A stretch of DNA of 64,000 nucleotides, taken from positions 1,867 through 65,866 of the forward strand of contig JBJMNK010000116.1 in NCBI GenBank assembly GCA_045804265.1, given 5' to 3'. Below the pieces are notes generated by a model. It made no database searches and had not been told where the DNA came from. It saw only the letters and a program-made list of their open reading frames with translations. Source of the DNA: Gemmatimonadaceae bacterium. GTDB lineage: Bacteria > Gemmatimonadota > Gemmatimonadetes > Gemmatimonadales > Gemmatimonadaceae. Positions within the stretch are counted from its first letter, which is position 1. Every line of letters begins with the position of its first letter. Made by a program: the position numbers and the translations under genes. Positions 975-56,003 of this stretch are shown here, piece after piece.

Positions 975-1009
975 GAAAGCCACCGCGGTGCGTCACCGCG
1001 GTGGCTTTC
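975..1009 (-). terminator. GC-rich hairpin downstream of the peroxiredoxin gene (terminator-like, no clear U-tract)
   Basis: Perfect 16-bp stem GAAAGCCACCGCGGTG / CACCGCGGTGGCTTTC with a 3-nt loop. It lies between the stop of the gene at 1051 and the start of aguB. Confidence 0.45.
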
Positions 1010-1050
1010 ACGCAACTTTGCCGCCGTCTCTCGACGCTGACAGTTAAAGG

Positions 1051-1680
1051 CTAACGGCCGGTTTTCTGTTTCACCGCGCTGTCCTTTGGCGCGAGCGCAT
1101 CGACCGCGGCCGCGAGGTCGGTGTAGGACTTGGGCAAGAGCTCCTTGAAGGGCTGCGCAGCGTAGGTGACGCGCCCATCCGGCCCGACCACGAAGAGGCT
1201 GCGGTCGTCGAGCTTGTACTGCTCGTTGTGCGCGCCGTAGCGACGACCGATGTCACCGGTGGGGTCGCTGGCGAAGAGCATCGGGAACTGTTCGTCGCGG
1301 GCCCAGCTGGCGAGCGCGGTGTCGGGGTCGACACTGATGCCGATCACGGTGACGTGACGGCCGTTGTTGAAGAGCGTGGCGTACTGATCACGGTACGCCT
1401 CCATTTGAATCGTTCAGCCCTTTGTCCGCGCCTTGTAGAAGAACGCGATCACCACCGTCTGTCCACGGTAGTCGGAGAGTCGAACGGGCGAGGCGAGCAG
1501 TCCATACCGCGTCGCACCACGAAGCTCGAAGTCGGGCGCGATGGTGCCCACCGTTATGACGGGAGCAGGCGCCGCCGGCGCGGCGGCCTGTGTCGGCTGT
1601 TGCGCATGCCCCGATCGCGCGGCGAGCAGGAGCGCGGCGGCGACGGCGGACGCCGCAAGACGATGAGAGATGATGGCCAT
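1051..1680 (-). CDS. Secreted PrxQ/BCP-type peroxiredoxin (AhpC/TSA family) with in-frame TGA (1414-1416) at the peroxidatic Cys position; probable selenoprotein
   Basis: Track ORFs 1414..2118(-) and 1051..1404(-) are in the same frame and separated only by TGA plus 9 nt. The joined product is MAIISHRLAASAVAAALLLAARSGHAQQ (signal peptide)...GTIAPDFELRG...LSDYRGQTVVIAFFYKARTKG-[TGA]-TIQMEAYRDQYATLFNNGRHVTVIGISVD...LFASDPTGDIGRRYG. This reproduces the Prx motif PxxxTxxC as YKARTKG-U. Confidence 0.7.
1378..1399 (-). promoter_or_regulatory. SECIS-like stem-loop downstream of the in-frame UGA
   Basis: In mRNA sense the structure is GGCGUAC-CGUGAUCA-GUACGCC, a 7-bp stem with an 8-nt loop containing GU. 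The stem starts 14 nt after the UGA, so the loop begins 21 nt downstream. This is within the spacing range described for bacterial SECIS elements. Confidence 0.5.
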
Positions 1681-1945
1681 TGATCCCGAGGTGAGGGTTG
1701 TCGAACACCGGATGATGTACGGCAAGCACCACGCGCGAAAGGGTCCGGAGGTCGCGATCCGCAGCTTCGAAGATAGGCGGCTAAGCGGGCTCGTCTGCGT
1801 CGCGGGACATCTTGAGTTACTGCTGAGGACGACACCCGCCGTTAAGGCCGGAAATAGCCGCACAACTTGCGGCATTGGCCCTGCCTTTACATGGCCCGTC
1901 GGCCGGGCTGTTCCGGCCCGGATCCAATCGAGGAGGGCTTCGATC

Positions 1946-2416
1946 ATGCGTTCGATCATCAAATACATCGCGATTCCTGCCGTCGTTCTCGCCGCGGCCT
2001 GCCAGAGCAAGGACGAGGCGAAGCTGGATGATTCGCTGAGCAAGGACCTCGCGCTCGCGTCACAGGTCCAGCCGTATCCGCAGCAGCAGTTCGTGTCGCC
2101 GCAGGAGATGGGATACAACGGCTACGGCCAGCCGCAGCAATATCAGGTCGCGCAGCGTGGTGGCTACTACCAGACCGCTCCCGTCTACTCGGCGCCGGCC
2201 CCGGTTCGCCGGACCTCGAGCGCGAGCCGGTCGAGCGGGACGACCGTCGCACGCCAGCCGGTCCGCAACACCAAGCGCGACGCCGTCATCGGTGCCGTCG
2301 GTGGAGCAGCGGTCGGCGCAGTGACGAGCCGTGACAAGGTGAAAGGCGCGATCATCGGCGCCGCGGCCGGCGGAATCCTTGGTGGGATCATCGGCCACAC
2401 GGTCGACACGCACTGA
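1946..2416 (+). CDS. Lipoprotein with C-terminal glycine-zipper domain
   Basis: AGGAGG lies 9 nt upstream of the ATG. The lipobox is MRSIIKYIAIPAVVLAAAC. The C-terminus reads AVIGAVGGAAVGAVTS...GAIIGAAAGGILGGIIGH. The longer track ORF from 1670 has no supporting features upstream. Confidence 0.7.
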   Translation: MRSIIKYIAIPAVVLAAACQSKDEAKLDDSLSKDLALASQVQPYPQQQFVSPQEMGYNGYGQPQQYQVAQRGGYYQTAPVYSAPAPVRRTSSASRSSGTTVARQPVRNTKRDAVIGAVGGAAVGAVTSRDKVKGAIIGAAAGGILGGIIGHTVDTH

Positions 2417-13355: not shown

Positions 13356-13572
13356 ACGCTGACGCCGCGCGTGACATGTCACACAACATCGCACCGGACT
13401 CGGCGCGGCCACATCGCGCCACGCGCGCAATCACGTCACCGTTAGGCGCCCAGTCGTGCGCGGTCCACGGTACGGGCACGGCGTCTGCCTTGCCATCTGT
13501 TTACCGCGCGTGGCGGCCACCATCGGTCCGCGACACCGGCGCGCAGCAACCACAGGAGCAGGAGGTAGCAGC

Positions 13573-14814
13573 ATGAGACGCCCATCGGCGATGACGATCG
13601 TCTGCGGCATTACGGCCGCGATCACACTCGGAATGGCGAGCACCGCGCGTGCGCAATCGGGCTCGACGAGCTCGACGTCCAGCACAAGCGCTGACACGAC
13701 CCACCGCGGGACGCGCGTGCGCAGCTCGACGAGGAAGGGGAAGTCGTCGAGCGGGTCGACCGCACGGAGATCATCACGCAGCTCTTCGGCGAGCGGGTCG
13801 AGCAGCTCGACGCGGCGAACGGGGTCGGCGCGTCGATCCTCGTCGAGCCGCACGTCGCCGCGTGACACGAGCATGAGCGGGAGCCGGAACGGGATGAGCG
13901 GCGGGAACAGCGGGTTGGTGAACGGCACGTCAAATGGCTCGATCGGGACGACCGGAGCGGGGAACGCGAACGGCTCCTACAATGGCTCGTACAACGGGTC
14001 GGCGGGCTACAACAATGGAGCGGTGAACGGCGCCAACGGCAGCCAGTATCCGTGCAACTACGGCCTGTCGAATGGCGGCGTGAATGGCACGATGAATGGC
14101 ACGATGAATGGCACGATGAATGGCACGATGAATGGCACGATGAACGGTACGACCAACGGCACGATTAATGGCACGGCGAATAGCTCGATGAATGGAACCG
14201 CGCCCGGCACGAACAACGGTTCAGTGAACGGCACGTCTAGCGCGACCACGAATGGGGGCGTTGCAGGAAACGCGTATCCGCAAGGGAATAACGCCGGCAC
14301 GAACGGCACCAATACCGCCAGCACGTATCCGGGTACCAGCGTCGCGGCGAACGGCGGCACGACGGGCGGCACGAGCAACAACGGCACGAACGTCGGCGTC
14401 AGCGGCGGCGTCAACAGCGGGATGAACAGCGGCGTGAACAACGGGACCACTGGCGGCGTGAACAACGGAACGAACGCTGGCGTCTACAACGGCACGAATG
14501 GTGGCGTGAACAACGGGACGGGAACAAACAGCGTGAACTGCACGCCTAACGGTTCGAACAGCGGCTACCAGGGTACGAACCAGGGGAACGGTCAGGGCAC
14601 GAACACCAATGGCTATCCCGGCACGGCGCCGCGCAATGGCACGAACGGGACGAACGGGACCAATGGTACGAACGGCACTCGCCAGCCGAATGGATCGGGC
14701 AGCGGGTCGACCGGAAGCTCCACCGGCACCACCGGTAACACCGGCGTCGGCACCGGTACCGGGACTGGCACCGGCAGTGGGAGCACCGGCACCGGCGGGC
14801 GGCCGCCGCGGTAG
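13573..14814 (+). CDS. Secreted low-complexity Asn/Gly/Thr-repeat protein with Ser/Arg-rich N-terminal spacer
   Basis: GGAGCAGGAGG lies upstream. Signal peptide MRRPSAMTIVCGITAAITLGMASTARA|QS. An S/T/R-rich segment follows, then about 300 aa dominated by NGT/NGS/NNG units (for example VNGTMNGTMNGTMNGTMNGTMNGTTNGTINGT and RNGTNGTNGTNGTNGT). The frame was chosen because it alone has an RBS and a signal peptide. Confidence 0.65.
   Translation: MRRPSAMTIVCGITAAITLGMASTARAQSGSTSSTSSTSADTTHRGTRVRSSTRKGKSSSGSTARRSSRSSSASGSSSSTRRTGSARRSSSSRTSPRDTSMSGSRNGMSGGNSGLVNGTSNGSIGTTGAGNANGSYNGSYNGSAGYNNGAVNGANGSQYPCNYGLSNGGVNGTMNGTMNGTMNGTMNGTMNGTTNGTINGTANSSMNGTAPGTNNGSVNGTSSATTNGGVAGNAYPQGNNAGTNGTNTASTYPGTSVAANGGTTGGTSNNGTNVGVSGGVNSGMNSGVNNGTTGGVNNGTNAGVYNGTNGGVNNGTGTNSVNCTPNGSNSGYQGTNQGNGQGTNTNGYPGTAPRNGTNGTNGTNGTNGTRQPNGSGSGSTGSSTGTTGNTGVGTGTGTGTGSGSTGTGGRPPR
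14080..14175 (+). repeat. In-frame 12-nt tandem repeat, 8 units (xNGT)
   Basis: GTGAATGGCACG, then ATGAATGGCACG x4, then ATGAACGGTACG, ACCAACGGCACG and ATTAATGGCACG. A second 9-nt repeat (AAYGGNACN x5) lies at 14635-14679. Confidence 0.8.
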
Positions 14815-19841: not shown

Positions 19842-21407
19842 CTACCAGTCCGTCGGCTTGTAGTCCTTGAGGAAGTGCCCCCAGACATGTTGTCCCGTAT
19901 TGAAGCCGTCGATGATCGGGTCGACGATGCGCGCGGCGCCATCGACGATGTCGAGCGGGGGATGGAAGCGGTGCTCGGCGACTTTTCGCGCGGCGATCTC
20001 CGCCGGGTCTTCGTCGGTGACCCAGCCGGTGTCGACGCTGTTCATGTGAATGCCGTCGGCGATGTAATCGGCGGCGGAGGTGCGCGTCATCATGTTCAGC
20101 GCGGCCTTCGCCATGTTCGTGTGCGGATGTCGCGTCGTCTTGAAGGTGCGATAGAACTGCCCTTCCATCGCCGAGACGTTGACGATGTGCTTGTCGCGCT
20201 CCGGCGTCTTCATCATCAGCGGCTTGAGGCGCGCGTTGAGGATGAATGGCGCGACGGCGTTGACGAGCTGTACCTCGAGCAACTCGACCGACGGCACTTC
20301 GGCGAGCATCAATCGCCACGAGTTGCGGCCGCGGAGGTCCACCTGCTGCATGTCCTGGTCGAGCCGTCCCTCGGGGAAGAGATCCTTCTGCGCGATGCGT
20401 TCCTCGGGGAGGAGCGCGACCTGTGAAAGCGCCGCGGCATGCGCGAGCCCGGCCGCGTCGGCGATCCCGGCGTCGAGCGCGAGCGAGCGGTCGCCCTCGG
20501 GGAGCATCGAGTATCCGCGCAGCCCCTCATAACGGCCGACCAGCTTGCGCACGTGCGCCGGCATCTCGCTCAGCGCCGCCATCTCGCCGGCCATCATGTG
20601 CTGGTAGAAGTCGGGCGGCCGCCTAACGGTCTGGCAGGCGTTGTTGACGATGAAGTCGAGCCGCTGGTGCGAGGTGACCAGCTCGTGGCAGAACGCCTCG
20701 ACGCTCGGCGTGTGCCGGAGGTCGAGGCCGAAGATCTCGAGGCGGTCGGACCAGTCCTCGAAGTCCGGCTCCTGCGCGTAGCGCGCCGCCGAGTCGCGCG
20801 GGAAGCGTGTGGTGACGATGAGGTGCGCGCCGGCGCGAAGCAGCTTGATCCCCGCCTGGTACCCGATCTTGACGCGACCGCCGGTGAGCAGCGCGACGCG
20901 ACCGCGGAGGTCGGCGGTCTCCGTGCGCTTGGCGAAGTTCAGCGTGGCGCAGGACGGGCAGAGCTGGTCGTAGAAGTGGTGCAGCTCGGCGTAGTCCCGC
21001 TTGCAGATGTAGCAGTTCTGGGTGATGCCATGATCGGCGCTGCCCGATTGACCAGGGAGCTCACCGATGCTGGCCGGCGGGAAAACGTTAGGCGAGGTAT
21101 AGACCGGCTGCCGCCGCAGCTTGCGGATCCCGGTCTCGGCGAGCGCACTCTCGGCGCGCTGGACCTTCTCGGCCTTGCGAGCCCGCTTGGTGAACTTGAG
21201 GAGCTGGCGCCGCTCGACCGCGTCAGGGCGCGAGACGCGCCCCGCCGCCTGAAGGAAGCGAGTCCGCTCCTCCGACGGGACGTGGCCAAGCAGCGCGCGA
21301 TCGGCGGCAACCGCCTCGAGCAGCTCGGTGGCCGCGCGAAGCTGGTCGAGCAGGGTGACGCCGTCGAGCCGGGGTGCAGCGGGCGCTTCGGGAAGACTTG
21401 TGGACAT
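19842..21407 (-). CDS. SDR family oxidoreductase with long N-terminal extension
   Basis: The Rossmann motif reads ALLTGGRVKIGYQAG. An SDR core follows. The N-terminal region contains a CxxC...CxxC pair (CYICKRD...CPSC). Confidence 0.8.
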   Translation of the reverse strand: MSTSLPEAPAAPRLDGVTLLDQLRAATELLEAVAADRALLGHVPSEERTRFLQAAGRVSRPDAVERRQLLKFTKRARKAEKVQRAESALAETGIRKLRRQPVYTSPNVFPPASIGELPGQSGSADHGITQNCYICKRDYAELHHFYDQLCPSCATLNFAKRTETADLRGRVALLTGGRVKIGYQAGIKLLRAGAHLIVTTRFPRDSAARYAQEPDFEDWSDRLEIFGLDLRHTPSVEAFCHELVTSHQRLDFIVNNACQTVRRPPDFYQHMMAGEMAALSEMPAHVRKLVGRYEGLRGYSMLPEGDRSLALDAGIADAAGLAHAAALSQVALLPEERIAQKDLFPEGRLDQDMQQVDLRGRNSWRLMLAEVPSVELLEVQLVNAVAPFILNARLKPLMMKTPERDKHIVNVSAMEGQFYRTFKTTRHPHTNMAKAALNMMTRTSAADYIADGIHMNSVDTGWVTDEDPAEIAARKVAEHRFHPPLDIVDGAARIVDPIIDGFNTGQHVWGHFLKDYKPTDW

Positions 21408-21465
21408 CCATGAAATCTAACCGCTCCAAGCGACCGGGAGTGCGTGCCGGTGCTACGAGGTTCGC

Positions 21466-22716
21466 CTACTCGTAGCGGAGTGCCTCGACCGGGTCCAATC
21501 TCGCTGCCCGTGCCGCCGGGAGCAGCCCGAAGACGATGCCGGCGAAGGCGCTGCCGAAGAGGGCGGCCGCGATGGCGGCGGGTGGAGCGGCGGCGTTGAT
21601 CGGCGTCGTCGAGCGAATGAGGTATGTGAGCCCGCCACCGACGACGAGACCGACAATCGCGCCGATGGTGGTGAGCGTCGCGGCCTCGACGAGGAACTGC
21701 CAGAGGATCGTCCCCTTCGTGGCGCCTAACGCCTTCCGGACGCCGATCTCGCGCGTCCGCTCGGTGACCGAGATCATCATGATCGCGACCACGCCGACAC
21801 CGCCGACGCAGAGGCCGATCGCGGAGAGGGTGATCATGACGATGAAGAAGACGCCGACGATCTTGTTGTACAGCTCCATGATCTTCTCGGGCGTCGACGT
21901 GAAGAAGTCGTTCTGCTGGGCGGGGCGGAGGTGACGGGTCGTGCGCAGGGCGGCGATCGTCTCGTCCATCGCGGCGTCGCGAGCGACCCCTTCGCGCGGC
22001 GTCACGGTGAGGTCCATCCAGTCGTCGTCGACGTTCATGTGACGGACGGCCGTCAGGTAGGGCATCACCAGCTTCCCCTTCGAGCCGGAGTCGAAGGCAT
22101 TGGCGAGCGGCTCGTAGACGCCGATCACCAGGAACGCCTTGCCGCGCAGGCGGATCGTCTTGCCGATGGCGTCGCCACCGGCGAACAACCGGTCGGCGAC
22201 CTTCTGGTTGATCAGCACGACGTTGGCCGCGTTGTCGTCCTCCTGCTGGGTGAAGTCGCGGCCGGCAATGATGTCGCCGCCGTTCACCTCGATCCAGCCG
22301 GTGGTGTAGGCGGCAAGGTCGACACCCGGGAGGTCGCGGTCACCGTAGCGCGCGGAGCTCGAGGACCCGATGTGCGCGACGACCGCCTTGATGCTCGGCA
22401 GCTGCGCGATGTCCTTCCCCTGATCGAGCGTGAGCGGCGCATTGTGCCGCCAGGGGCAGCTGTCGGCGCTTCCGTTGCAGCTGTTGATCTCCGGCGGCCA
22501 GCGAGTGAGGAAGAAGGTCGTCGGGCCCGCGGCAGCGATGCTCTGTCGGACCCCTTCGTTGATCCCGTGCACCGCCGCCGACATGACGGTGACGACGAAG
22601 ACGCCGACCGCGATGCCGAGGATGGTGAGGCCGGCGCGGACCTTGTTCGAGCGGATCGCGTCGATCGCGATACGGACGCCCTCGAGCAGCGAGTAGACCC
22701 TGGTGCCGATGGACAT
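21466..22716 (-). CDS. ABC transporter permease, MacB/FtsX type
   Basis: The layout is an N-terminal TM, a large periplasmic domain and a C-terminal FtsX 3-TM domain. Motif ERTREIGVRKALGATKGTILWQFLVEA. Confidence 0.85.
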   Translation of the reverse strand: MSIGTRVYSLLEGVRIAIDAIRSNKVRAGLTILGIAVGVFVVTVMSAAVHGINEGVRQSIAAAGPTTFFLTRWPPEINSCNGSADSCPWRHNAPLTLDQGKDIAQLPSIKAVVAHIGSSSSARYGDRDLPGVDLAAYTTGWIEVNGGDIIAGRDFTQQEDDNAANVVLINQKVADRLFAGGDAIGKTIRLRGKAFLVIGVYEPLANAFDSGSKGKLVMPYLTAVRHMNVDDDWMDLTVTPREGVARDAAMDETIAALRTTRHLRPAQQNDFFTSTPEKIMELYNKIVGVFFIVMITLSAIGLCVGGVGVVAIMMISVTERTREIGVRKALGATKGTILWQFLVEAATLTTIGAIVGLVVGGGLTYLIRSTTPINAAAPPAAIAAALFGSAFAGIVFGLLPAARAARLDPVEALRYE

Positions 22717-22719
22717 TGG

Positions 22720-23961
22720 CTACTCCGACCGCATCGCGGCGATGGGGTCGAGCCGCGACGCACGGCTCGCCGGATATGCGCCGGCGGTGATGCCGACACC
22801 GGCGCCGATGACGACGCCGAGCGCGATGGACCACGGCGCGACGGCGGCAGGGAGCGGGGAGACGGCGGCGATCAGCTGCGAGAGGCCGATGCCTAACGCG
22901 ATGCCGAGGATCGCCCCGACGACGCTCAGCGCCGCCGACTCGGCGAGGAACTGGCGCAGGATGTCGCGGTTGCGCGCGCCCAACGACTTGCGGATCCCGA
23001 TCTCGCGCGTGCGCTCGGCGACGGCGACGAGCATGATGTTCATGATGACGATGGACCCGACGATCAGGCCGATCGCGGGGAGCGCGATCCCGGCGAGCAC
23101 GAGATACTGCTTGATCTTGAGCCACCCGGAGAGCGCACTCTCGGAGCTCTCGAAGGAGAAGTTGTCCGGCTGCGCGGGGCGGAGGTGGCGGCGCCGGCGC
23201 ATCGTCTCCCGCACCATCTCCTGGAGCGGCTTGAGCTTCGACGGGTCCGGCGCCTGCACGACGACACCGTAGAGGTTCTGCCTGACGTTGGTGATCCGTC
23301 CCATGTACGAGTGGAAGGGCGCGATCACCTGGCGGTCGAGCGAGAGGCCGAAGACGGTGCCCTGTTTCTCGAGCACGCCGATCACGGTGAAGGGAAACTT
23401 GTTGACCTTGAGCTCGCGGCCGATCGGGTCGAGGTTCGGGAAATAATGCTCGGCGATCTCGGTCCCGATGACGACCACCGACGACCCGAGCTGGTCGTCC
23501 TGGTCGGTGAAGAGCCGCCCCTCAGTGACTGCGAGGTTCTTGATCCGGAAGAAATCGGGGGTCACCGCCTGGGCGAGTATCTGCGGACCGCCGGGGGTGA
23601 AGTGCGAGCTGCCGTCGCCCCAGGTAATCCCGTGCATCGCCCAGCCCGCGCCACTCGGCAGCGCCTCGCGGACGGCGAGCGCGTCGTCCACCGAGATCTT
23701 GGGACGCCTGAGCCACATCTTCCACGTCTCTTCCGTCTCGTCGGTGTTGATGTCCGGGAAGCGGCGCAGGTTGAAAGTGTTGACGCCGAGGAATTTCCCG
23801 GCGAAGTCCTCCTCGACGTAGCGGCTCATCCCCTGCACGATCGACACGACCGCGATCAGGAACATCACGCTGATGGTGACGCCAATCAGCGTGAAGAAGC
23901 TCTTCAGCTTCTGGACGCGAAGCTGCTGAAGGGCGAGACGAACGGCTTCGAAGACTGGCAT
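22720..23961 (-). CDS. ABC transporter permease, MacB/FtsX type (paralogue of the adjacent gene)
   Basis: Same architecture as the adjacent gene. Motif ERTREIGIRKSLGARNRDILRQFLAES. Confidence 0.85.
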   Translation of the reverse strand: MPVFEAVRLALQQLRVQKLKSFFTLIGVTISVMFLIAVVSIVQGMSRYVEEDFAGKFLGVNTFNLRRFPDINTDETEETWKMWLRRPKISVDDALAVREALPSGAGWAMHGITWGDGSSHFTPGGPQILAQAVTPDFFRIKNLAVTEGRLFTDQDDQLGSSVVVIGTEIAEHYFPNLDPIGRELKVNKFPFTVIGVLEKQGTVFGLSLDRQVIAPFHSYMGRITNVRQNLYGVVVQAPDPSKLKPLQEMVRETMRRRRHLRPAQPDNFSFESSESALSGWLKIKQYLVLAGIALPAIGLIVGSIVIMNIMLVAVAERTREIGIRKSLGARNRDILRQFLAESAALSVVGAILGIALGIGLSQLIAAVSPLPAAVAPWSIALGVVIGAGVGITAGAYPASRASRLDPIAAMRSE

Positions 23962-24043
23962 GACGTTGTACCGGCGGGGGGATTCCGGGCTTTACGCGGG
24001 GAGGGCTGAGTTGGTGTCAGCGATCGCGATGCATGGTGATTCT

Positions 24044-30370: not shown

Positions 30371-30494
30371 CTGGGGCGCGGCGGGAGCGTTAGGCAGGGC
30401 GGGTCTCGTGTGACGAACGGAGGAGGGCGGGGCGCCCCTAATTCTTACTGTTTCCTGGCTTGCGCGATACCCCTGTTTTCGCGTACGTGACGGA

Positions 30495-32945
30495 ATGCAA
30501 ATCCGCTTCGTGACCCTCGCGCTCGTGTGCACGATTGCAATCGGCAGTCGCGCCGCGGCAGAGTGCCCCGCCAGGGACCCGGCCGGCGCGTGTCTCGTGG
30601 CGATTGCCCCGACCGCGAGCGATGCCAGCGACGTCTATGTCGGGCGCGCGGGCCAGACGAGGGTAAGGCCGCCGCGGCTCGAGGAGAGCGGCTCGAGCGT
30701 GGATGGGGTGCTCGACGACGCACAGTGGCAGCACGCGGCGCTGCTCACGGGGTTTTCGGAGTTCTCGCCGCTCGACGGGGTCGCGGCCGAGGATTCGAGC
30801 GAGGTGCTCGTCTGGTACTCGGCGACGGCGATCCATTTCGGCATCCGCGCGTTCGAGCCGCACGGCGCGGTGCGGGCGACGCTGGCGAACCGCGACAACA
30901 TCGCGAGCGACGACAACATCCAGCTGCTGCTCGGGACGTTCAACGACGGGCGGCAGGCGATGGTGTTCGGCGTGAACCCGCTCGGCGTGCAGATGGACGG
31001 CGTGCTGGTCGAGACGAACCAGTCGCACGGGAACGACTTCAACGCCAAGGCGACGTCACGCGACCAGGCGGACCTCAGCCCGGACTTCGTCTTCGAGTCG
31101 AAGGGGCGCCTAACGGCGTACGGCTACGAGGTCGAGGTGCGCATCCCGTTCAAGAGCCTCAAGTACCCCAACGCGGCCGAGCAGGCGTGGGGACTCAACA
31201 TCGTGCGGATCGTCCAGCACTCCGGACACGAGGATTCGTGGGCGCCGGCGAAGCGCGCGTCGCTCTCGTTCCTCGGCCAGTCGGGGACCGTCGAGGGGAT
31301 GACCGACCTGCGGCGCGGGCTTGTAGTGGACGTGACGCCGGAGATCACGCAGCGCACGACGGGTGCACCGCTGACGGCGCCTGGTGCCGGTGGCTGGGAC
31401 TATTCGGCCGCTAATCCGCAGATCGGGGGCACCGTTCGCTGGGGGGTCACGAACAACATGACGCTCAACGCGACGGCGAATCCCGATTTCTCGCAGGTGG
31501 AGTCGGATGCCGGGCAGGTGGTGTTCGACCCGCGCGCAGCGTTGTACTTCACCGAGAAGCGGCCGTTCTTCCTCGACGGGAGCGAGCAGTTCTCGACACC
31601 GCACAACCTGGTCTACACGCGGCGGATCGTGCAGCCGGTCGCGGCGGCGAAGCTGACCGGGAAGATGTCGGGATTGAACCTCGCGCTGCTGTCGGCGGTG
31701 GACCGTCGTACCGCGTCGCTGACCGGTGATGGGCATCCCGTGTTCAACATCGTGCGGCTGCAGCGCGATCTCGGCGGGCAGTCGCGGGTCGGCATGACGT
31801 ACACCGATCGCATCGACGGCTCGGGGTACAACCGCGTCGCCGACGCCGACGGACGCTACGTGTTCCGCGGGATCTACAGCGTGCAGGGGCAATATGCGCG
31901 CAGCTTCACGAAGGATGTCGCGAGCGCGCCGATGGTGGCGGCGCCGTTATGGAACACGGTGGTGAGTCGCAACGGGAAGGCGTTCGGGCTGCGCTACTCG
32001 CTCGACGGGGTGAGCGACCGGTTCCGCACGCGCAGCGGCTTCATCTCGCGCGGCGGGATCGTCACACTCGGACTCGATCATCGCTTCACCTGGACCGCGC
32101 CGGCGGGTGCGTGGCTCGAGACGTTCAGCTTCAGCCCGGTGGTGAACACGACGTGGCGCTACGAGCGGTTCGTGCAGCAGAAGGACGCGATCGAGAAGCT
32201 TCTGCACTTCAACCTCTCGGCCACTGCGCGCGGCGGATGGAACGCGGGGTTCGGGCTGCTGACCGAGACGTTCGGCTTCGACCCCGATCTCTACGCGAAC
32301 TATCGGATCCTGCGCGGGCCGGGCGACACGATCGCGTTTCGCGGCGTGGGGCGAATCCCGAACCAGGATTGGGTCTTCTCGGCGAGCACTCCGGAGTGGC
32401 AGAAGCTGTCGGCGAACGCGCTCTATCTCTGGGGGCGGGACGAGAACTTCTTCGAGTGGCAGTCGGCGAACATCGTCTTCGCGAGCTACGGACTCACGTT
32501 GCGGCCGAACCAGAAGCTGCGTGTCGATGGGAGCTACCAGCTGCAGACGTACCGGCGGCGCCCGGAAGGCACGATGGTCGGCGAGTTCAAGATTCCGCGG
32601 CTCAAGCTCGAGTACCAGCTCCAGCGCGCGATCCTGCTGCGTCTCGTCGGCGAGTATGACTCGGGCGCGCAGGCGGCGCTGGTCGACGCCGGGCGAACCG
32701 GGCTTCCGCTGCTGGTGAACAACGCGCTCGCGCCGGCGCAGACCGACAGCCGCTTCCGCGGCGACTTTCTCTTCTCGTACACACCGGTGCCCGGCACGGT
32801 GTTCTTCGTCGGCTATGGCGCAGGGTACGAGGACGTGCGCGACGTACCGAAGCAGTTCAGCTTCCCGCGATCGTTAGGCCTGGCGGGCTACGCGCGTGAC
32901 GGCGACGCACTGTTCATCAAGGCGAGCTACCTGATACGGATGTAG
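30495..32945 (+). CDS. DUF5916/CBM9-like domain outer-membrane protein
   Basis: Signal peptide, then VDGVLDDAQWQHAA...WYSATAIHFGIRAFE...DNIQLLLGTFNDGRQAMVFGVNPLG, then a long beta-rich C-terminus ending in F/Y-rich strands. It is a paralogue of 53286..56003. Confidence 0.8.
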   Translation: MQIRFVTLALVCTIAIGSRAAAECPARDPAGACLVAIAPTASDASDVYVGRAGQTRVRPPRLEESGSSVDGVLDDAQWQHAALLTGFSEFSPLDGVAAEDSSEVLVWYSATAIHFGIRAFEPHGAVRATLANRDNIASDDNIQLLLGTFNDGRQAMVFGVNPLGVQMDGVLVETNQSHGNDFNAKATSRDQADLSPDFVFESKGRLTAYGYEVEVRIPFKSLKYPNAAEQAWGLNIVRIVQHSGHEDSWAPAKRASLSFLGQSGTVEGMTDLRRGLVVDVTPEITQRTTGAPLTAPGAGGWDYSAANPQIGGTVRWGVTNNMTLNATANPDFSQVESDAGQVVFDPRAALYFTEKRPFFLDGSEQFSTPHNLVYTRRIVQPVAAAKLTGKMSGLNLALLSAVDRRTASLTGDGHPVFNIVRLQRDLGGQSRVGMTYTDRIDGSGYNRVADADGRYVFRGIYSVQGQYARSFTKDVASAPMVAAPLWNTVVSRNGKAFGLRYSLDGVSDRFRTRSGFISRGGIVTLGLDHRFTWTAPAGAWLETFSFSPVVNTTWRYERFVQQKDAIEKLLHFNLSATARGGWNAGFGLLTETFGFDPDLYANYRILRGPGDTIAFRGVGRIPNQDWVFSASTPEWQKLSANALYLWGRDENFFEWQSANIVFASYGLTLRPNQKLRVDGSYQLQTYRRRPEGTMVGEFKIPRLKLEYQLQRAILLRLVGEYDSGAQAALVDAGRTGLPLLVNNALAPAQTDSRFRGDFLFSYTPVPGTVFFVGYGAGYEDVRDVPKQFSFPRSLGLAGYARDGDALFIKASYLIRM

Positions 32946-42076: not shown

Positions 42077-42117
42077 AACTACTCTCCGTAACGCTTCCCG
42101 AGCAATAACTTCCAGTC

Positions 42118-44226
42118 GTGACGCGACCCATCCACGCTCTCGACTCGCCATTCGTGCGCACCGCCGCCGCTGCAACGATCCTGCTCCTCTGCGCCGCTGC
42201 CCCGCTCTACGCCCAGACGCAGCCCTCCCCCGCGATCGATCCCCCTTCCGCGACCGCGACCCGCCCGATCCCCGGCCCCGTCTACGAGATCCCCGAGTAT
42301 TCGCGCGCGGTGACCAACGGTACGCGCTCGCGCGACGGTCGCCCCGGTACGAAGTACTGGGTGAACCGCGCGTCATACTCGATCGACGCCACCCTCGACG
42401 ACGCGCGGCATCGTGTGATCGCGCACGAGGTGGTCCTCTATCGCAACAATTCGCCGGACACGCTGCGCCGGGTCGCGGTGCATCTCCGACAGAATGCCTT
42501 CGTCGCCGGCAACGCCCGCAACCAGCCGGCCCCAGTGACGAACGGGATGTTGCTCTCGCGCGTGGCGGTGAACGGCCAGCAGGTCATCGCGCGGTCTAAC
42601 GGTCCGGCGGCGCTGCCGATCACGTCGGTCGGGAAGCGTCGGGTGTCGACGGAGACTGGCTACATAATCGACGGCACCGTGATGTGGCTGCAGCTCGCCG
42701 CGCCGATCCTCCCGGGCGAGAGCGCAAGACTGGAATTCGCCTGGAGCTACGAGCCGCCACTCTCGCCATCCGATGGTCGGCAGGGGCGTGAGGAGCAGCT
42801 ATACATGGCCGGCTACTGGTACCCGCAGGTCGCGGTCTACGACGACGTCACCGGATGGGTGGCCGACCAGTACACGTTAGGCGCCGAGTTCTACATGGAT
42901 CACGCCGACTACGACGTGCGCCTGACGGTGCCGCATGGCTGGGTGATCGGCGCGACCGGGACGCTGCAGAACGCGAGCGAGGTCCTGTCGGCGAGCGCTC
43001 GCTCGCGACTGGCCGATGCTCGGCGCACGGGCGCGGTCATCCATGTCGTCGAGCCGGGGAAGGGGGCAGCATCCGCGTTCACCGGCAAGGGGACGACGGC
43101 GACCTGGCACTTCGTCGCGTCCGACGTCCGTGACTTCTTCTGGGGGACGAGCAACCGTTATGTCTGGGACGCGACGCGCGCGCTCGTCGCCCGCGACGGT
43201 GCGCCGGCCGGCGGTGCGCCGGCCGGCGGTGCGCCGGCCGGCGGTGCGCCGGATACGGTCGACATCTTCAGCTTCTACCGGCGGAGCGCGGCGGCGGCGG
43301 CCTGGCCGTTAGGCGGGGCGCGGCTCACCCGCGACGCGATCGAGCAGCTCTCGAAGTACCTCTGGAAGTACCCGTGGCCGGTCATGTCGTCGATGGAAGG
43401 GGTGCTGGAGAGCGGCGGGATGGAGTACCCGATGGTGACGACGATGCAGCCGTGGGCGGACACGCTCTCGCTCGCCGGTGACCTCATGCACGAGACGGGA
43501 CACATGTGGTTCCCGATGCAGGTCGGGTCGAACGAGACGCGCTATCCGTGGATGGACGAGGGATTCACCCAGTTCGACGTCGCGCAGGCGATGCGGCCAC
43601 TCTATGGCGAACCGCGTGCAGGCGGACGGCCCGGCGACTCGGAGCCGGGACAGCGCGAGCTCTACCTCCGCGTCGCGCGCAGCGGGCGAGACATGACGCT
43701 GATGTGGAACGGCGACCTGTACCCGCCGAACCTCTACTTCATCATGTTCTACGACAAGACCGCGGCGGCGCTGGCCGCGCTGCGCGGCGTGATCGGCGAG
43801 GAGACGTTCCACCGCGCATACCGTGAATACGGCCGCCGCTGGACGGGGAAGCACCCCTACCCGTACGATTTCTTCAACACCGTGAACGACGTCGCCGGCC
43901 AGGATCTGTCATGGTTCTGGCAGAGCTGGTTTTATCAGCCCTGGCCGCTGGACCAGGCGGTAGCTTCGGTGCAGGCCGCCGGCGACTCGACGGCGATCAC
44001 CATCGAGGACCGCGGCCTCGCGCCGATGCCCGTCCGCCTGACGGTGACGCGGAGCGACGGGACGAAGCAGCAGCTCATGCTGCCCGTGACGGTGTGGCTG
44101 GGTGGCTCGCGGCGGCAGGTCGTGCGCGTCGCATCGCGCCCGGCGGTGACGAGAGTCGAGATCGATCCTGAAGGCTTCTTTCCTGACATGAACAGGCAGA
44201 ACCAGCTCTGGGAGAACAGCAAATGA
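42118..44226 (+). CDS. M1 family metallopeptidase (secreted)
   Basis: Zinc motif HETGHMWFPMQVGSNETRYPWMDEGF (HExxH-18-E). Signal-like N-terminus. GTG start. Confidence 0.85.
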   Translation: MTRPIHALDSPFVRTAAAATILLLCAAAPLYAQTQPSPAIDPPSATATRPIPGPVYEIPEYSRAVTNGTRSRDGRPGTKYWVNRASYSIDATLDDARHRVIAHEVVLYRNNSPDTLRRVAVHLRQNAFVAGNARNQPAPVTNGMLLSRVAVNGQQVIARSNGPAALPITSVGKRRVSTETGYIIDGTVMWLQLAAPILPGESARLEFAWSYEPPLSPSDGRQGREEQLYMAGYWYPQVAVYDDVTGWVADQYTLGAEFYMDHADYDVRLTVPHGWVIGATGTLQNASEVLSASARSRLADARRTGAVIHVVEPGKGAASAFTGKGTTATWHFVASDVRDFFWGTSNRYVWDATRALVARDGAPAGGAPAGGAPAGGAPDTVDIFSFYRRSAAAAAWPLGGARLTRDAIEQLSKYLWKYPWPVMSSMEGVLESGGMEYPMVTTMQPWADTLSLAGDLMHETGHMWFPMQVGSNETRYPWMDEGFTQFDVAQAMRPLYGEPRAGGRPGDSEPGQRELYLRVARSGRDMTLMWNGDLYPPNLYFIMFYDKTAAALAALRGVIGEETFHRAYREYGRRWTGKHPYPYDFFNTVNDVAGQDLSWFWQSWFYQPWPLDQAVASVQAAGDSTAITIEDRGLAPMPVRLTVTRSDGTKQQLMLPVTVWLGGSRRQVVRVASRPAVTRVEIDPEGFFPDMNRQNQLWENSK

Positions 44227-46193
44227 TCGCGAGCAACAGGCGCGGGCGGTGGAGCATGCAGCTTCTGGAGCCGGCGCTGGTCGGTGCCGCGGCGCTCGTC
44301 GTATCGCCTAACGCGTCGGCAGCCCAGGCGCCGGCTGCGCGAGTTGCGACGCCATCGCTATACCAGCCCCGCGCGGTCCGCGCCGCCTATGCGAAGGGAA
44401 CGCGTTCCCCGGACGGACGTCCCGGCGCGAAGTACTGGCAGAACCACGGGCGCTACGCGATCACCGTCACGGCCGCGCCGCCGAGTCGCGCGATCACGGG
44501 GACAGAGCAGATCACCTACTGGAACGCGAGCCCCGATTCGCTGCACACGCTGATCATCAAGCTGCTGCTCAACACTCACAAGCCAGGCGCTCCGCGCGAC
44601 GGCGGCGCTGATTCGCTGTACCTGACGTCGGGGGTGCACATCGACCGCGTCACGGTGAACGGCCAGCCTTTCCCATGGCAGGAGTCCGGGCGCTACTTCA
44701 CCTGGGCACCGCTGCGCCTGACGTCTCCGGTCGCGCCGGGGGACTCGATCCGCCTGACGTTCGACTGGCACTTCGACCTCTCGCGCGAGAGTGGCCGCGA
44801 GGGGATGATCGACTCGACCACCGCCTTCCTCGCCTACTTCTATCCCCGCGTTGCCGTCTACGACGACTACAATGGCTGGGACACGATGACGTTCACGGGG
44901 AGTCAGGAGTTCTACAGCGACTTCAACGACTACGACGTCACCGTGAACGCGCCGGCGAACTTCATCGTCTGGGGGACGGGCACGTTAGGCAACGCGTCGG
45001 CGGTGCTGCAGCCGGCGGTGGTCGATCGTTACCAGCGATCGCTGACCGCCGACACCACCGTGCACGTGGTGACGAAGGAGGATCTCGCCGCGCATCGCGT
45101 CACCGCGCAGCAGCCGCAGAACGCCTGGCACTTCTCGGCGCGCAACGTCCCCGACATGGCGTTCGCGATCAGCGACCACTACGACTGGGACGCGACCAGC
45201 GTCGACGTCGATGACGCGACGCAGCGCCGCGCCAGCGCCAACGCGGCGTTCGCCGATTCGTCGAAGGACTACCACCGGGTCGCGCAGTACGCGCGCCACT
45301 CGCTCGACTGGCTCTCGCACAACTGGCCGGGCGTCCCGTACCCGTACGAGAAGTCGACCGTCGTGCAGGGCTTCGCCGGGATGGAGTACCCGATGATGGC
45401 CAACGACGAGACGTACAGCGACACGGTCTTCTCCCGCTTCGTCGCCGAGCACGAGATCGCGCACACGTACTTCCCCTTCTACATGGGGATCAACGAGACG
45501 CGCTACGCCTTCATGGACGAAGGCTGGGCGACGACGTTCGAGTACCTGATCGGCACCGCCGATCTCGGCCACGAACGGGCAACCGAGTTCTTCAAGCAAT
45601 TCCGCGTCAACAGCTGGATCAGCAGCTCCTCGCCGGTCGAGGACCTGCCGATCATCACCCCCGAGGACGTCCTCCGCGCCGAGGCGTGGGGGAACAACGC
45701 CTATGGCAAGGCGGCGTTAGGCTATCTCGCGCTGAAGGACATGCTCGGCGACGACGTGTTCCGGGCGTCGCTGCACGCGTTCATGGACCGCTGGCACGGC
45801 AAGCACCCCATCCCCTGGGACTTCTTCAACACCGTCAACGACGTCTCGAAGAGGAATCTCGACTGGTTCTGGAACAGCTGGTACTTCCAGAACAGCTACA
45901 TCGACATCGGCGTGACCGGAGCGACGAAGACGCGCGGCGGCTACAGCCTGACGCTGGCGAACATCGGCGGGATGCCAGCGCCGGTGGACCTGAAGCTGAC
46001 GTATAGTGACGGCGGCAGCGCGACCGTGCACGAGACGTCGGCGATCTGGCAGGCGAACCAGCAGCGTGCTAGCATAACGCTCCCGACGAAGAAGGGGCTG
46101 CGGTCAGTCGCGCTCGACCACTCGATCTGGGTCGACGCCGACACGACGAACGATTCCTGGCCGACCCACCCCCACCCACCCGCGACCCACTGA
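44223..46193 (+). CDS. M1 family metallopeptidase (paralogue, secreted)
   Basis: ATGA overlap with the upstream stop. Zinc motif HEIAHTYFPFYMGINETRYAFMDEGW. Confidence 0.85.
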   Translation: MIASNRRGRWSMQLLEPALVGAAALVVSPNASAAQAPAARVATPSLYQPRAVRAAYAKGTRSPDGRPGAKYWQNHGRYAITVTAAPPSRAITGTEQITYWNASPDSLHTLIIKLLLNTHKPGAPRDGGADSLYLTSGVHIDRVTVNGQPFPWQESGRYFTWAPLRLTSPVAPGDSIRLTFDWHFDLSRESGREGMIDSTTAFLAYFYPRVAVYDDYNGWDTMTFTGSQEFYSDFNDYDVTVNAPANFIVWGTGTLGNASAVLQPAVVDRYQRSLTADTTVHVVTKEDLAAHRVTAQQPQNAWHFSARNVPDMAFAISDHYDWDATSVDVDDATQRRASANAAFADSSKDYHRVAQYARHSLDWLSHNWPGVPYPYEKSTVVQGFAGMEYPMMANDETYSDTVFSRFVAEHEIAHTYFPFYMGINETRYAFMDEGWATTFEYLIGTADLGHERATEFFKQFRVNSWISSSSPVEDLPIITPEDVLRAEAWGNNAYGKAALGYLALKDMLGDDVFRASLHAFMDRWHGKHPIPWDFFNTVNDVSKRNLDWFWNSWYFQNSYIDIGVTGATKTRGGYSLTLANIGGMPAPVDLKLTYSDGGSATVHETSAIWQANQQRASITLPTKKGLRSVALDHSIWVDADTTNDSWPTHPHPPATH

Positions 46194-53184: not shown

Positions 53185-53285
53185 ACTAACGGTGCGCGGC
53201 AGGGACTCCTGTTGACCGGCGCGGGCCAAGTGTCAACGCCGCGTCAACCCTTCGACCGCACCGCCTGTCAAACACCGTCGGCCCG

Positions 53286-56003
53286 ATGCCGGGCACACTG
53301 GCCCCGATCACCAGCCCCCCTCGCATGCGCTCTCCATTCCTTTTCGTCCTCGCCTTCGGCACGTTCTCCGTCCCGGCCTGGGCGCAGCAGGGCACCAAGG
53401 CGCCTAACGTCACGACACCGCCGCGGACGATGAGCGCCGTTCGGCGGAACGGGCCGATCGTCCTCGACGGAAAGCTCGACGAGGCCGCGTGGGCGGCGGC
53501 GACGCCGAGCGGGGATTTCCTGCAGAGCTATCCCGCACCGGGGAAGCCGGCACCCGATCGCACCGAGGTTCGCGTCCTCTACGACGACGCGGCGCTGTAC
53601 GTCGGGATCCGGATGTTCGATGCGCACCCCGATTCGATCGCCGCCGGCCTCGCGCGGCGCGACGCGACCGCGGCGACCGGGATCTACTCCGACTGGGTGC
53701 ACCTGATCATCGACTCGTATCACGACCGCCGCACCGCGTTCCGTTTCTCGACCACGCCGCGCGCCGTGCAGAAGGACGTCTACACCTCGAACGACGGGAA
53801 CGAGGACATCAACTGGGACGCGATCTGGGAGGTCGGCACGCGCGTCGACTCGGCCGGATGGGTCGCCGAATACCGGATCCCACTCAGCCAGCTCCGCTTC
53901 GGCGACGAGCAGGGCGAGAGCCGAACGTGGGGATTCCAGGTCCAGCGCGACATCGCCCGCCGCAACGAGCGCGACACGTGGGCCCCGTGGACGCCTAACG
54001 ACGGCGGCTTCGTCTCGCGGTTCGGCGACCTGGTCGGGATCAGCGGCATCCGCGCGCCGGAGCGGCTCGAGGTCATCCCCTACGTCAGCTCGACGTTCAC
54101 CCGCGCGCCGGGCGACCCGGCCGATCCCTTCTTCCATGCGACGAACAGCCAGCCCAAGGTCGGCGGCGACCTCCGCTACGGCCTGCCGTTAGGCCTGACG
54201 CTGAGCGCGACGATCAACCCCGACTTCGGCCAGGTCGAGGTCGACCCGGCGGTGGTCAACCTGTCGGCGTTCGAGATCTCCTTCCCGGAGAAGCGGCCGT
54301 TCTTCCTCGAGGGGAGCGACGTCTTCAGCTTCGGCCAGGTCGTCAGGCAGAACGACTACGGCGGCCAGAGCTTCCTCTACTCGCGCCGGGTGGGGCGGCA
54401 GCCGCAGCTCGGCATCCCCGACAGCGCCCAGTTCGCCGACTTCCCGACCCAGACCACCATCGCCGGCGCGGCCAAGGTCACGGGCAAGAACGGACCGTGG
54501 ACGGTCGGCATCCTCGACGCCGTGACCACCGAGCAGCAGGCACAGCTCCTCTCGGAGAACGGCACGCGCTTCGAGCGGGCGGTCGAGCCGCTGACCAACT
54601 ACTTCGCCGGGCGGCTGCGCCGCGACTTCCGCGCCGGGGCGACCACGGTCGGCGCGATGATCGAGAACACCAACCGCGCGTTAGGCGACACGGTCTTCAC
54701 CCCGCGGCTGCGCGCGAACGCGACCTTCGGCGGGATCGACTTCGAGCACAACATGAAGAAGCGGGCATGGGCGCTGAGCGGGTTCGCCGCCGCGAGCACC
54801 GTCCGCGGCAGCGCCGACGCGATCGCGGCGACGCAGCGCAACAGCACGCACAACTTCGCCCGCCCCGACGCACCATACCTCAGCTACGACCCGACGCGGA
54901 CCTCGCTCGACGGCTACATCAGCGAGCTGGCACTGGCCAAGCGCGGCGACGTGTTCGGCTCGATCGCGGTGAAGACGACCAGCCCCGGGCTCGAGCTCAA
55001 CGACCTCGGCTTCCAGAGTCGCACCGGGTACAAGGCAGTCTCGACGCTGATCGGGAAGTCGAGCTACACCGCAACGAAGCACCTGCAGAGCTGGACCACG
55101 TTCGTCTACCAGAACGACGCGTGGAACTACGGCGACCGTCCGATCTTCCACGGCTACGCCGGGCAGGCCAGCGCCACACTGAGAAACTTCTGGGGGGGTG
55201 ACGTCGGTGTCACCTACGCACCGAAGTTCTACGACGACAACCTCCTCCGAGGCGGCCCCGAGGCGGCGCAGCCGACGAGCACCTACGCGAACGTCAACGT
55301 CAACAGCGATTCGCGAAAGCCGGTCGTGATGAACCTCGGGCTCGCGTACGCGCACGATGTGCTCTCCGGTTATTCCAAAGGGGCGAACCTCTCGCTCGAC
55401 CTGCGGCCGACGTCGAACATCCATGTCAACCTCGGGCCCAGCTTCAGCCAGCTCTATGACACCGAGCAGTATCGCGCCTCAGTGAGCGACCCGCTGGCGA
55501 CCAACACCTTCGGCCGCCGTTATGTCCTCGCGGCGCTGCGGCAGAACACCCTCTCGCTCGACACACGGATGGACGTGACGTTCACGCCGCGCCTGAGCTT
55601 CGTCATGTACGCGCAGCCGTTCGTCTCCGCGGGACGCTACAACTCGTTCAAGGAGTTCCTCACCCCCGGGCAGACCGCGTTCAAGGTCTACGACCCGGCG
55701 AAGGGCGAGATCTCCTACAACGCGACGACGCAGCGCTACACGATCGATCCCGACGGCACCGCCGGCCCGGCGCCGAGCTTCACCATCGGCCAGCCGAACT
55801 TCAACATCCGCTCGCTGCGAGGCAACGCCGTGCTGCGCTGGGACTATCGTCCCGGCTCGGCGTTCTACGTCGTCTGGCAGCAGGAGCGCAGCGGCTTCCT
55901 GCCGTTAGGCCAGTTCGAGACCCGCCGCGACGTCGGCGCGATCTTCCGCACCGTGCCGACGAACGTGTTCCTGATCAAGGCGACGTACTGGATCGGCCGC
56001 TGA
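53286..56003 (+). CDS. DUF5916/CBM9-like domain outer-membrane protein (start 53286 or 53325)
   Basis: Signal peptide MRSPFLFVLAFGTFSVPAWA. LDGKLDEAAWAAA...VLYDDAALYVGIRMFD...DWVHLIIDSYHDRRTAFRFSTTPR. It is a paralogue of 30495..32945. Confidence 0.8.
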   Translation: MPGTLAPITSPPRMRSPFLFVLAFGTFSVPAWAQQGTKAPNVTTPPRTMSAVRRNGPIVLDGKLDEAAWAAATPSGDFLQSYPAPGKPAPDRTEVRVLYDDAALYVGIRMFDAHPDSIAAGLARRDATAATGIYSDWVHLIIDSYHDRRTAFRFSTTPRAVQKDVYTSNDGNEDINWDAIWEVGTRVDSAGWVAEYRIPLSQLRFGDEQGESRTWGFQVQRDIARRNERDTWAPWTPNDGGFVSRFGDLVGISGIRAPERLEVIPYVSSTFTRAPGDPADPFFHATNSQPKVGGDLRYGLPLGLTLSATINPDFGQVEVDPAVVNLSAFEISFPEKRPFFLEGSDVFSFGQVVRQNDYGGQSFLYSRRVGRQPQLGIPDSAQFADFPTQTTIAGAAKVTGKNGPWTVGILDAVTTEQQAQLLSENGTRFERAVEPLTNYFAGRLRRDFRAGATTVGAMIENTNRALGDTVFTPRLRANATFGGIDFEHNMKKRAWALSGFAAASTVRGSADAIAATQRNSTHNFARPDAPYLSYDPTRTSLDGYISELALAKRGDVFGSIAVKTTSPGLELNDLGFQSRTGYKAVSTLIGKSSYTATKHLQSWTTFVYQNDAWNYGDRPIFHGYAGQASATLRNFWGGDVGVTYAPKFYDDNLLRGGPEAAQPTSTYANVNVNSDSRKPVVMNLGLAYAHDVLSGYSKGANLSLDLRPTSNIHVNLGPSFSQLYDTEQYRASVSDPLATNTFGRRYVLAALRQNTLSLDTRMDVTFTPRLSFVMYAQPFVSAGRYNSFKEFLTPGQTAFKVYDPAKGEISYNATTQRYTIDPDGTAGPAPSFTIGQPNFNIRSLRGNAVLRWDYRPGSAFYVVWQQERSGFLPLGQFETRRDVGAIFRTVPTNVFLIKATYWIGR

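Follow-up and report, generated by a model that had tools for sequence, protein, structure and literature searches.

A 64-kb stretch of Gemmatimonadaceae DNA (67.6% G+C; here called the window, meaning the whole stretch that was analyzed) very probably contains, on its minus strand, a single gene for a secreted peroxiredoxin whose peroxidatic residue is selenocysteine (Sec), specified by an in-frame UGA codon. Recoding of this kind had been proposed in a first-pass annotation of the same DNA, and the proposal is now supported by conservation of the UGA among orthologues, pairing of Sec with cysteine at that codon, equal selection on the two halves of the gene, frozen synonymous sites immediately downstream, and a hairpin that fits the model of the bacterial selenocysteine insertion sequence (bSECIS). 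Only the last 117 codons of the 209-codon gene are recorded in GenBank, as MFL5562427.1 ([quoted passage not shown], 117 aa; MAG, metagenome-assembled genome), which is identical to the C-terminal fragment in the window. The features of the locus, with the basis for each in parentheses, are as follows.

1051..1680, minus strand: complete selenoprotein gene, predicted to encode a secreted 1-Sec AhpC/TSA peroxiredoxin (reading frame, Pfam, and the same split into 88-aa and 117-aa pieces on orthologous contigs)
1603..1680, minus strand: predicted signal peptide of the Sec type (the export pathway, not the amino acid), residues 1–26, MAIISHRLAASAVAAALLLAARSGHA then QQ (read from the sequence)
1423..1437, minus strand: active-site motif codons Y82-K-A-R-T86, with Thr86 conserved and Tyr82 replacing Pro (alignment to solved peroxiredoxins)
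1414..1416, minus strand: in-frame UGA, residue 89, at the peroxidatic Cys position and probably read as selenocysteine (alignment, orthologue conservation, TGT/TGC in Cys homologues)
1363..1419, minus strand: suppressed synonymous change, codons -1 to +17 around the UGA, with essentially invariant non-preferred CAA, CGT and GAT (codon entropy and synonymous divergence, pS)
1378..1399, minus strand: SECIS-like hairpin, 7-bp stem GGCGUAC/GUACGCC and 8-nt loop CGUGAUCA (fold, orthologue pairing, bSECIS constraints)
1201..1203, minus strand: conserved active-site Arg160 codon, in LDDRSLFVV (invariant in 77 Sec forms and 49 homologues; in alignment, falls in the region of the AhpE catalytic Arg)

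Reading frame, domain and active site

From an ATG at 1680..1678 to a terminal TAG at 1053..1051, the minus strand is a single frame of 209 codons with one internal stop, a TGA at 1416..1414 (codon 89). The translation begins with MAIISHRLAASAVAAALLLAARSGHAQQ, reaches the TGA as VVIAFFYKARTKG, resumes as TIQMEAYRDQYATLFNNGR and ends in KQKTGR; the residues flanking the TGA are thus VVIAFFYKARTKG on one side and TIQMEAYRDQYATLF on the other, and there is no cysteine anywhere in the 209 residues. This agrees with the earlier description of two minus-strand open reading frames (ORFs) in one frame, parted by a single TGA at 1414-1416 and together encoding 209 residues. The coordinates then given for the upstream ORF (1414..2118) were mechanical, reflecting a TTG at 2118, and the gene actually begins with the ATG at 1680. 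A second ATG, at 1404, sits four codons past the TGA and would start the 117-aa piece.

When the stop is replaced by Cys, the Pfam family AhpC-TSA (PF00578) matches residues 44–173 with an E value of 6.5e-28 (97.6 bits against a cut-off of 26), and Redoxin matches with an E value of 2e-15. The AhpC-TSA match extends to both sides of the TGA, and hence one domain spans it. Among solved structures, the best sequence matches are Mycobacterium tuberculosis AhpE (E 1.9e-12) and archaeal BCP (E 2.4e-12), and in both the TGA aligns with the peroxidatic Cys (FFPLAFTGIC in AhpE, FYPAAFTQVC in BCP). Pfam and these alignments together confirm that the TGA occupies the catalytic Cys position of an AhpC/TSA protein, as had been claimed. 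Two further active-site residues can be placed in the same way: Thr86 aligns with the motif Thr of AhpE and BCP, a residue 99–100% conserved among homologues, and the Arg160 segment LDDRSLFVV aligns with IANRGTFVV of AhpE, R160 being invariant in 77 Sec forms and 49 homologues.

The fold was modeled on a Cys homologue (P0002) that is 59% identical to the window protein. The model, with a mean confidence (pLDDT) of 84.8, has the thioredoxin-type peroxiredoxin fold; Foldseek matched it to Bcp4 with an E value of 4e-14, and its template modeling (TM) scores to Bcp4 and AhpE were 0.82–0.83. Assignment to a named subfamily is less direct. The PrxU equivalog NF040737 was missed (58.1 bits against a cut-off of 270), as were the BCP/PrxQ equivalogs NF006960 and NF053650 (55.1 against 140 and 39.3 against 260 bits). 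Atypical 2-Cys BCP/PrxQ proteins have a resolving Cys about five residues after the peroxidatic residue; the window protein, having no Cys, has none there, and only one Cys is present in each of its Cys-form relatives. Judged by its sequence and by the predicted fold of the modeled homologue, the protein sits between AhpE and BCP/PrxQ. The “PrxQ/BCP” label of the first-pass annotation is accordingly not established, AhpE and BCP structures matching equally well and all NCBIfam equivalog cut-offs being missed.

The N-terminus (residues 1–26) has a basic n-region, an Ala/Leu h-region and G-H-A ahead of QQ, and homologues have similar N-termini with a conserved A-Q-Q. We therefore predict a signal peptide of the Sec type, with which the peroxiredoxin would be exported.

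Conservation of the in-frame TGA and its pairing with cysteine

A protein search returned relatives of two sorts: full-length Cys homologues of 187–231 aa with roughly 51–67% identity, and proteins of 114–117 aa with 81–88% identity, all starting with MEAYRD, which are truncated gene calls. On orthologous contigs an 88-aa AhpC-TSA fragment ends 9 nt ahead of the 117-aa call, and the neighbors are those found in the window: upstream there is a Gly-zipper gene in divergent orientation, and downstream come CN_hydrolase and PAD_porph genes. A scan of metagenomes by alignment of the fragment found 554 relatives on contigs, of which the best 80 were kept. The TGA lies four codons before the ATG in 83 of 83 cases (the window and 82 loci, at 67–87% protein identity), and it is also kept in four more distant loci (L126, L129, L131 and L132). 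The survey of the TGA thus covers 87 loci at approximately 52–88% protein identity, on contigs from JGI, ENA and NCBI. Orthologues had been named as the place to look for a genuinely split or truncated gene; what they have is the same TGA codon in 87 loci and no other disruption. A separate scan of genome contigs with the U-to-C protein returned no orthologue from Gemmatimonadota, only distant peroxiredoxins whose best segments were 23–43% identical; of its six peptide patterns, one ran across the Cys and was unable to match a TGA.

At the UGA codon, 101 Cys homologues pair with the Sec forms, and TGT or TGC at this codon was confirmed in the DNA of five loci (L127, L128 and L133–L135). One of these, L128, is HJU88720.1, a Cys form from the Gemmatimonadaceae MAG GCA_035253585.1. 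Its neighbors are those of the window, DUF1003 and DAGK/YegS upstream and CN_hydrolase and PAD_porph downstream, and the common neighborhood identifies it as the orthologous locus with Cys in place of Sec. The suggested alignment of orthologues for Cys/Sec alternation has thus turned up homologues with Cys at this codon, including a syntenic one. Such Sec/Cys pairs are the standard signature of a selenoprotein (PMC13188914).

In a neighbor-joining tree of the C-terminal 112 residues, which is short and unbootstrapped, Sec forms fall into three or four groups interleaved with Cys forms, and the hairpin core described below is common to all Sec forms. L127, a Cys form beside the main Sec clade, retains six of the seven hairpin pairs. 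The common core in interleaved Sec forms, together with this remnant in L127, tentatively suggests one origin of Sec in the family followed by several Sec-to-Cys reversions.

Synonymous constraint, the downstream hairpin and alternative readings

Selection was analyzed on 77 distinct Sec-form sequences. In the 47 codons upstream of the UGA, synonymous divergence (pS) was 0.66 and nonsynonymous divergence (pN) 0.14 (pN/pS 0.22); in the 87 codons from +18 on, the values were 0.61 and 0.13 (pN/pS 0.21). Equal pN/pS on both sides, at near-saturated synonymous divergence, indicates that both halves are translated and constrained alike. Between these segments, pS drops to 0.18 in the 17 codons after the UGA, the sole minimum in the sliding-window profile of the gene. 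Within this zone the codons GCG, TAC, CGT, CAG, TAC and GCC are found in 77 of 77 sequences, GAG in 76, GAT in 75 and CAA in 74, and synonymous entropy is close to zero, compared with 1–2 bits for Ala, Arg, Gly and Thr codons elsewhere. CGT, GAT and CAA are non-preferred in this type of genome, and Gln elsewhere in the gene is encoded by CAG over CAA at 52:1. An RNA-level constraint acts on the hairpin region.

Cys forms are free of this constraint to the extent that four distinct Cys-form genes can tell. Three of them encode an identical MEAYRDQYATLFNN peptide and the fourth, L128, has MET for MEA, and they differ at the sites that are frozen in Sec forms (CAG for CAA; also GAA, GCA/GCT, TAT, GAC, GCA and ACA; CGC in all four). 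The hairpin is lost in these Cys forms, where the equivalent segment folds weakly, at -2 to -8.4 kcal/mol vs. -8 to -10.3 kcal/mol in Sec forms.

The hairpin itself, on the minus strand, has a 5' arm GGCGUAC at 1399..1393, the loop CGUGAUCA at 1392..1385 and a 3' arm GUACGCC at 1384..1378. It begins 14 nt past the UGA, with 21 nt from the UGA to the apical loop, and has a folding energy of -10.3 kcal/mol. The 7-bp stem, the 8-nt loop containing GU and the 14-nt spacing had all been noted in the first pass, and sequence and fold agree with that description. Published bSECIS constraints are a loop of 3–9 nt, a stem of 4–16 bp, a G at the first or second loop position with a U after it, 16–37 nt from the UGA to the loop, and a minimum free energy (MFE) of -7.5 kcal/mol or lower (PMC13188914). 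With a loop of 8 nt starting C-G-U, a stem of 7 bp, a distance of 21 nt and -10.3 kcal/mol, the hairpin falls within every numerical range. In 33 distinct orthologue sequences, distant Sec forms included, 99.1% of cells in the 7-bp hairpin are paired and six pairs are invariant; the outer stem pair shows one compensatory change from G-C to C-G (L129) and two losses (L111 and L132). The loop is invariant save for one CGG and two GAC variants, which would be compatible with sequence-specific recognition. A longer alternative from RNAfold (a UGGAG/CUUCA lower stem, GCGU/ACGC, then CGUG/UACG closing an AUCAG loop) was dropped, as 6 of its 13 pairs fail in some orthologues, with no compensating change. 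In window positions 1000-1800, even at E <= 10, Rfam returned no SECIS family and chance matches only (sR32, glutamine riboswitch, asX3).

Translation of the gene could then proceed as follows. The UGA at 1416..1414 would not be read as a stop; the mRNA hairpin 14 nt downstream, with its 7-bp stem and loop CGUGAUCA, would recruit SelB with Sec-tRNA(Sec), and Sec would be inserted as residue 89. SelB, SelA, SelD and tRNA-Sec would all be encoded outside the window. The 209-residue precursor would be exported via its N-terminal signal peptide, and the mature, Cys-free protein would act as a 1-Sec thiol peroxidase, in which a selenolate held by Thr86 and Arg160 would reduce peroxide, becoming selenenic acid, and an external reductant would recycle it.

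Several observations weigh against selenocysteine. Some concern the hairpin: the fold of 76 nt does not exceed shuffled sequences in stability (z = -0.49); hairpins at least as stable follow 5.7% of the 1469 TGA triplets in the window, and 12.7% of these triplets are followed by one within the bSECIS constraints; the peptide E-A-Y..Q-Y-A already fixes four of the seven stem pairs; and covariation amounts to a single event in a nearly invariant element. Taken alone the hairpin is weak evidence, barely above chance, and since such hairpins are common by chance and four of seven pairs are dictated by the peptide, the case rests on the comparative data.

Others concern the active site and the Sec position. 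Tyr82 stands where AhpE and BCP have Pro, and so the Pro of PxxxTxxC(U) is lacking; of the motif described as universal in the first-pass annotation, the Thr and the Cys/Sec position hold and the Pro does not. Of the 77 Sec forms, 74% have Tyr at this position and the others have Phe or, rarely, Pro. Over all Sec forms it is Tyr, Phe or Val nearly throughout, and in Cys forms it is Pro in 100 of 101 (window codon 1435-1437, minus strand; counts ignore kinship), and the replacement of Pro by Tyr, Phe or Val looks coupled to the Cys/Sec switch. Two relatives (L130 and P0004) have Leu at the Sec position. In the first of these, L130:101-664 has TTA where the otherwise identical L129:548-1120 has TGA, and the coverage of the L130 contig is 1.6; the TTA could reflect a G-to-T error or else a rare allele, seen because full-length ORFs rank high.

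The remaining points concern the insertion machinery. None of the approximately 36 Pfam-scanned genes of the 64-kb window has a SelA, SelB or SelD domain; ARAGORN found no tRNA genes in the window, nor in 60 orthologous loci (L044–L103); Rfam at gathering thresholds gave no match in the window; and nothing relevant to Sec use in Gemmatimonadetes, Gemmatimonadota or Gemmatimonas emerged from a literature search. It is mainly the absence of the machinery from the window, to which the search was confined, and the silence of the literature on this phylum that keep our confidence from being higher.

Among the alternatives, the one that survives best is translation through the UGA by other means, with a near-cognate Trp or Cys inserted, or UGA serving as a sense codon in the lineage, and the hairpin merely stimulating read-through. 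The failure to find Sec machinery in the window is in its favor, as is the fact that five full-length database proteins from JGI gene calls (P0001, P0015, P0080, P0118 and P0120) have Trp at the site. However, in the DNA of four of them (P0001, P0015, P0080 and P0120, at L126, L129, L131 and L132) the “Trp” codon is in every case TGA, from which it follows that the gene caller used another code and that the Trp at the active site is false. TGA is also the commonest ordinary stop in the window, ending 19 of 34 Pfam-confirmed genes, and the code is thus not reassigned; when the window was scanned for further in-frame TGAs with coding signal around them, the one at 1414 and ordinary gene ends were all that came up, and no other gene has a conserved in-frame TGA. 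At a catalytic Cys position, moreover, Trp would be inactive, and both the Sec/Cys pairs and a hairpin with bacterial SECIS spacing and a loop G-U count against simple read-through. We consider this explanation very unlikely.

It is more improbable still, by a clear step, that the locus is a pseudogene or a truly divided gene, with translation ending at the TGA and the two pieces, N-terminal (88 residues) and C-terminal (117 residues), either dead or produced separately, the second starting from the ATG at 1404. Public annotation reads the locus in this way (the 117-aa “redoxin domain-containing protein” here, and calls of 88 aa and 117 aa elsewhere), and an ATG is indeed available four codons past the TGA. 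Against this, L131 and L132 have CTG and TTC at the position of that ATG, from which it follows that the downstream half cannot be started independently and re-initiation is excluded; Met at this position is also found in Cys forms and therefore belongs to the protein sequence rather than marking a start. Decay or separation of the halves is likewise at odds with the same TGA codon in 87 loci that show no other disruption, with equal purifying selection on both halves, and with one thioredoxin-fold domain that extends across the TGA, neither half of which could fold alone. An error of assembly or sequencing in an ordinary Cys-peroxiredoxin gene can be dismissed as the source of the TGA, for although a single base separates TGA from TGC or TGT and MAG assemblies contain errors, the orthologue survey refutes it with the same TGA in 87 independent contigs from many samples in JGI, ENA and NCBI.

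Significance, neighboring features and comparison with known systems

The enzyme class, the TxxU peroxiredoxins, is well known, and the locus is very probably a mis-annotated selenoprotein gene that would not surprise a selenoprotein specialist. Sec use in Gemmatimonadaceae appears to be unreported. Tentatively, and at somewhat less than even confidence, we suggest that the clade is the first sign of Sec decoding in this family and a distinct exported variant in which a lone Sec is the sole redox residue and Pro gives way to Tyr or Phe in step with the change from Cys to Sec. If the Sec machinery is confirmed, Gemmatimonadaceae would join the Sec-using lineages, with a selenium requirement for extracytoplasmic peroxide defense. 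If the selenoprotein reading is true, the family would also be a natural experiment on the benefit of selenium to an extracellular peroxidase, and the linked change from Pro to Tyr or Phe, together with close Sec/Cys pairs at one syntenic locus, would make it a clean system for the effect of Sec on peroxiredoxin chemistry. A more immediate consequence is for annotation: MFL5562427.1 and the JGI and ENA calls give pieces of 88 aa and 117 aa or a false Trp, affecting at least 87 loci and probably many of the 554 metagenome relatives.

Several other features of the window were recorded in passing. The divergent upstream neighbor at 1946-2416 (plus strand) is a Gly-zipper (YMGG-like) protein whose likely start gives a lipoprotein-type signal (MRSIIKYIAIPAVVLAAAC), and its pairing with the peroxiredoxin gene is kept on orthologous contigs, in Sec and Cys forms alike. 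Downstream, between the peroxiredoxin stop and the CN_hydrolase gene, a long perfect inverted repeat (GAAAGCCACCGCGGTG ... CACCGCGGTGGCTTTC) lies at 975-1009 (minus strand); no T run follows it, which is why the terminator scan left it unflagged.

Farther away, the protein of a 452-codon ORF at 13456-14814 (plus strand) starts with a signal-like N-terminus and continues as a low-complexity sequence rich in Asn, Gly, Thr and Ser, in which NGT and NGTMNGT recur many times; AT skew is unusual here, at 0.355, and an opposite-strand ORF tested there had no Pfam match. A short-chain dehydrogenase ORF at 19845-21416 (minus strand) has a split Pfam match, with adh_short 2-90 at residues 174-265 and adh_short_C2 91-185 at residues 373-475, which points to an insertion of approximately 100 residues inside the Rossmann domain. 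Paralogous pairs are found at 21469-23991 (minus strand), at 42109-46190 (plus strand), and at 30414-32942 and 53190-56000 (plus strand), comprising a pair each of MacB/FtsX-type permeases, M1-type peptidases and DUF5916 proteins; the permease and peptidase pairs are in tandem, and the two DUF5916 genes are about 20 kb apart.

Peroxiredoxins with a TxxU motif are an established family of bacterial selenoproteins, with PrxU of Eubacterium acidaminophilum as the prototype; they were found in 78 organisms in a 2016 survey, and the GOS metagenome contained 253 sequences (PMC13188914, PMC5029168, PMC2398784). The statement in the first-pass annotation that Prx-like selenoproteins are known in some bacteria is thus on record. 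The window protein resembles those of the PrxU type in its AhpC/TSA domain, in the position of Sec in T-x-x-U, in having mostly Cys homologues, and in a SECIS hairpin right after the UGA. It differs from PrxU in falling below the NF040737 equivalog cut-off, in its predicted signal peptide, in the absence of Cys, and in having Tyr or Phe for the motif Pro. Its host is also of another kind, an aerobic-type, high-GC member of the Gemmatimonadaceae, in contrast to the clostridial, deltaproteobacterial and marine hosts of known Prx selenoproteins.

Of the peroxiredoxins with solved structures, the 1-Cys AhpE of M. tuberculosis (Rv2238c) is the best match, sharing a single redox residue and no resolving Cys, and it has the best combination of TM score and identity to the modeled Cys homologue (TM 0.83, 31%). 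AhpE is nevertheless cytoplasmic, uses Cys and has the canonical Pro, and at about 30% identity subfamily membership is not established. The protein is also similar to BCP/PrxQ (E. coli BCP, Sulfolobus Bcp4, Aeropyrum and Sulfurisphaera BCP) in size, in fold and around the motif; Bcp4 ranks first among the fold matches, and JGI labels the orthologues “peroxiredoxin Q/BCP”. Unlike BCP/PrxQ, it misses the equivalog (55 vs. 140 bits), lacks a resolving Cys five residues on, and is predicted to be secreted.

The hairpin compares in a similar way with the SECIS elements of E. coli fdhF and fdnG and with the bSECIS model. In common with these it is a stem-loop within the coding sequence after the UGA, with G then U early in a small apical loop, and as in the bSECIS model the distance from UGA to loop (21 nt, within a range of 16–37) is short and the MFE is below -7.5 kcal/mol. 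It shares no sequence similarity with the fdhF and fdnG elements and has no bulged U, and its loop of 8 nt is one above the commonest bSECIS loop pattern.

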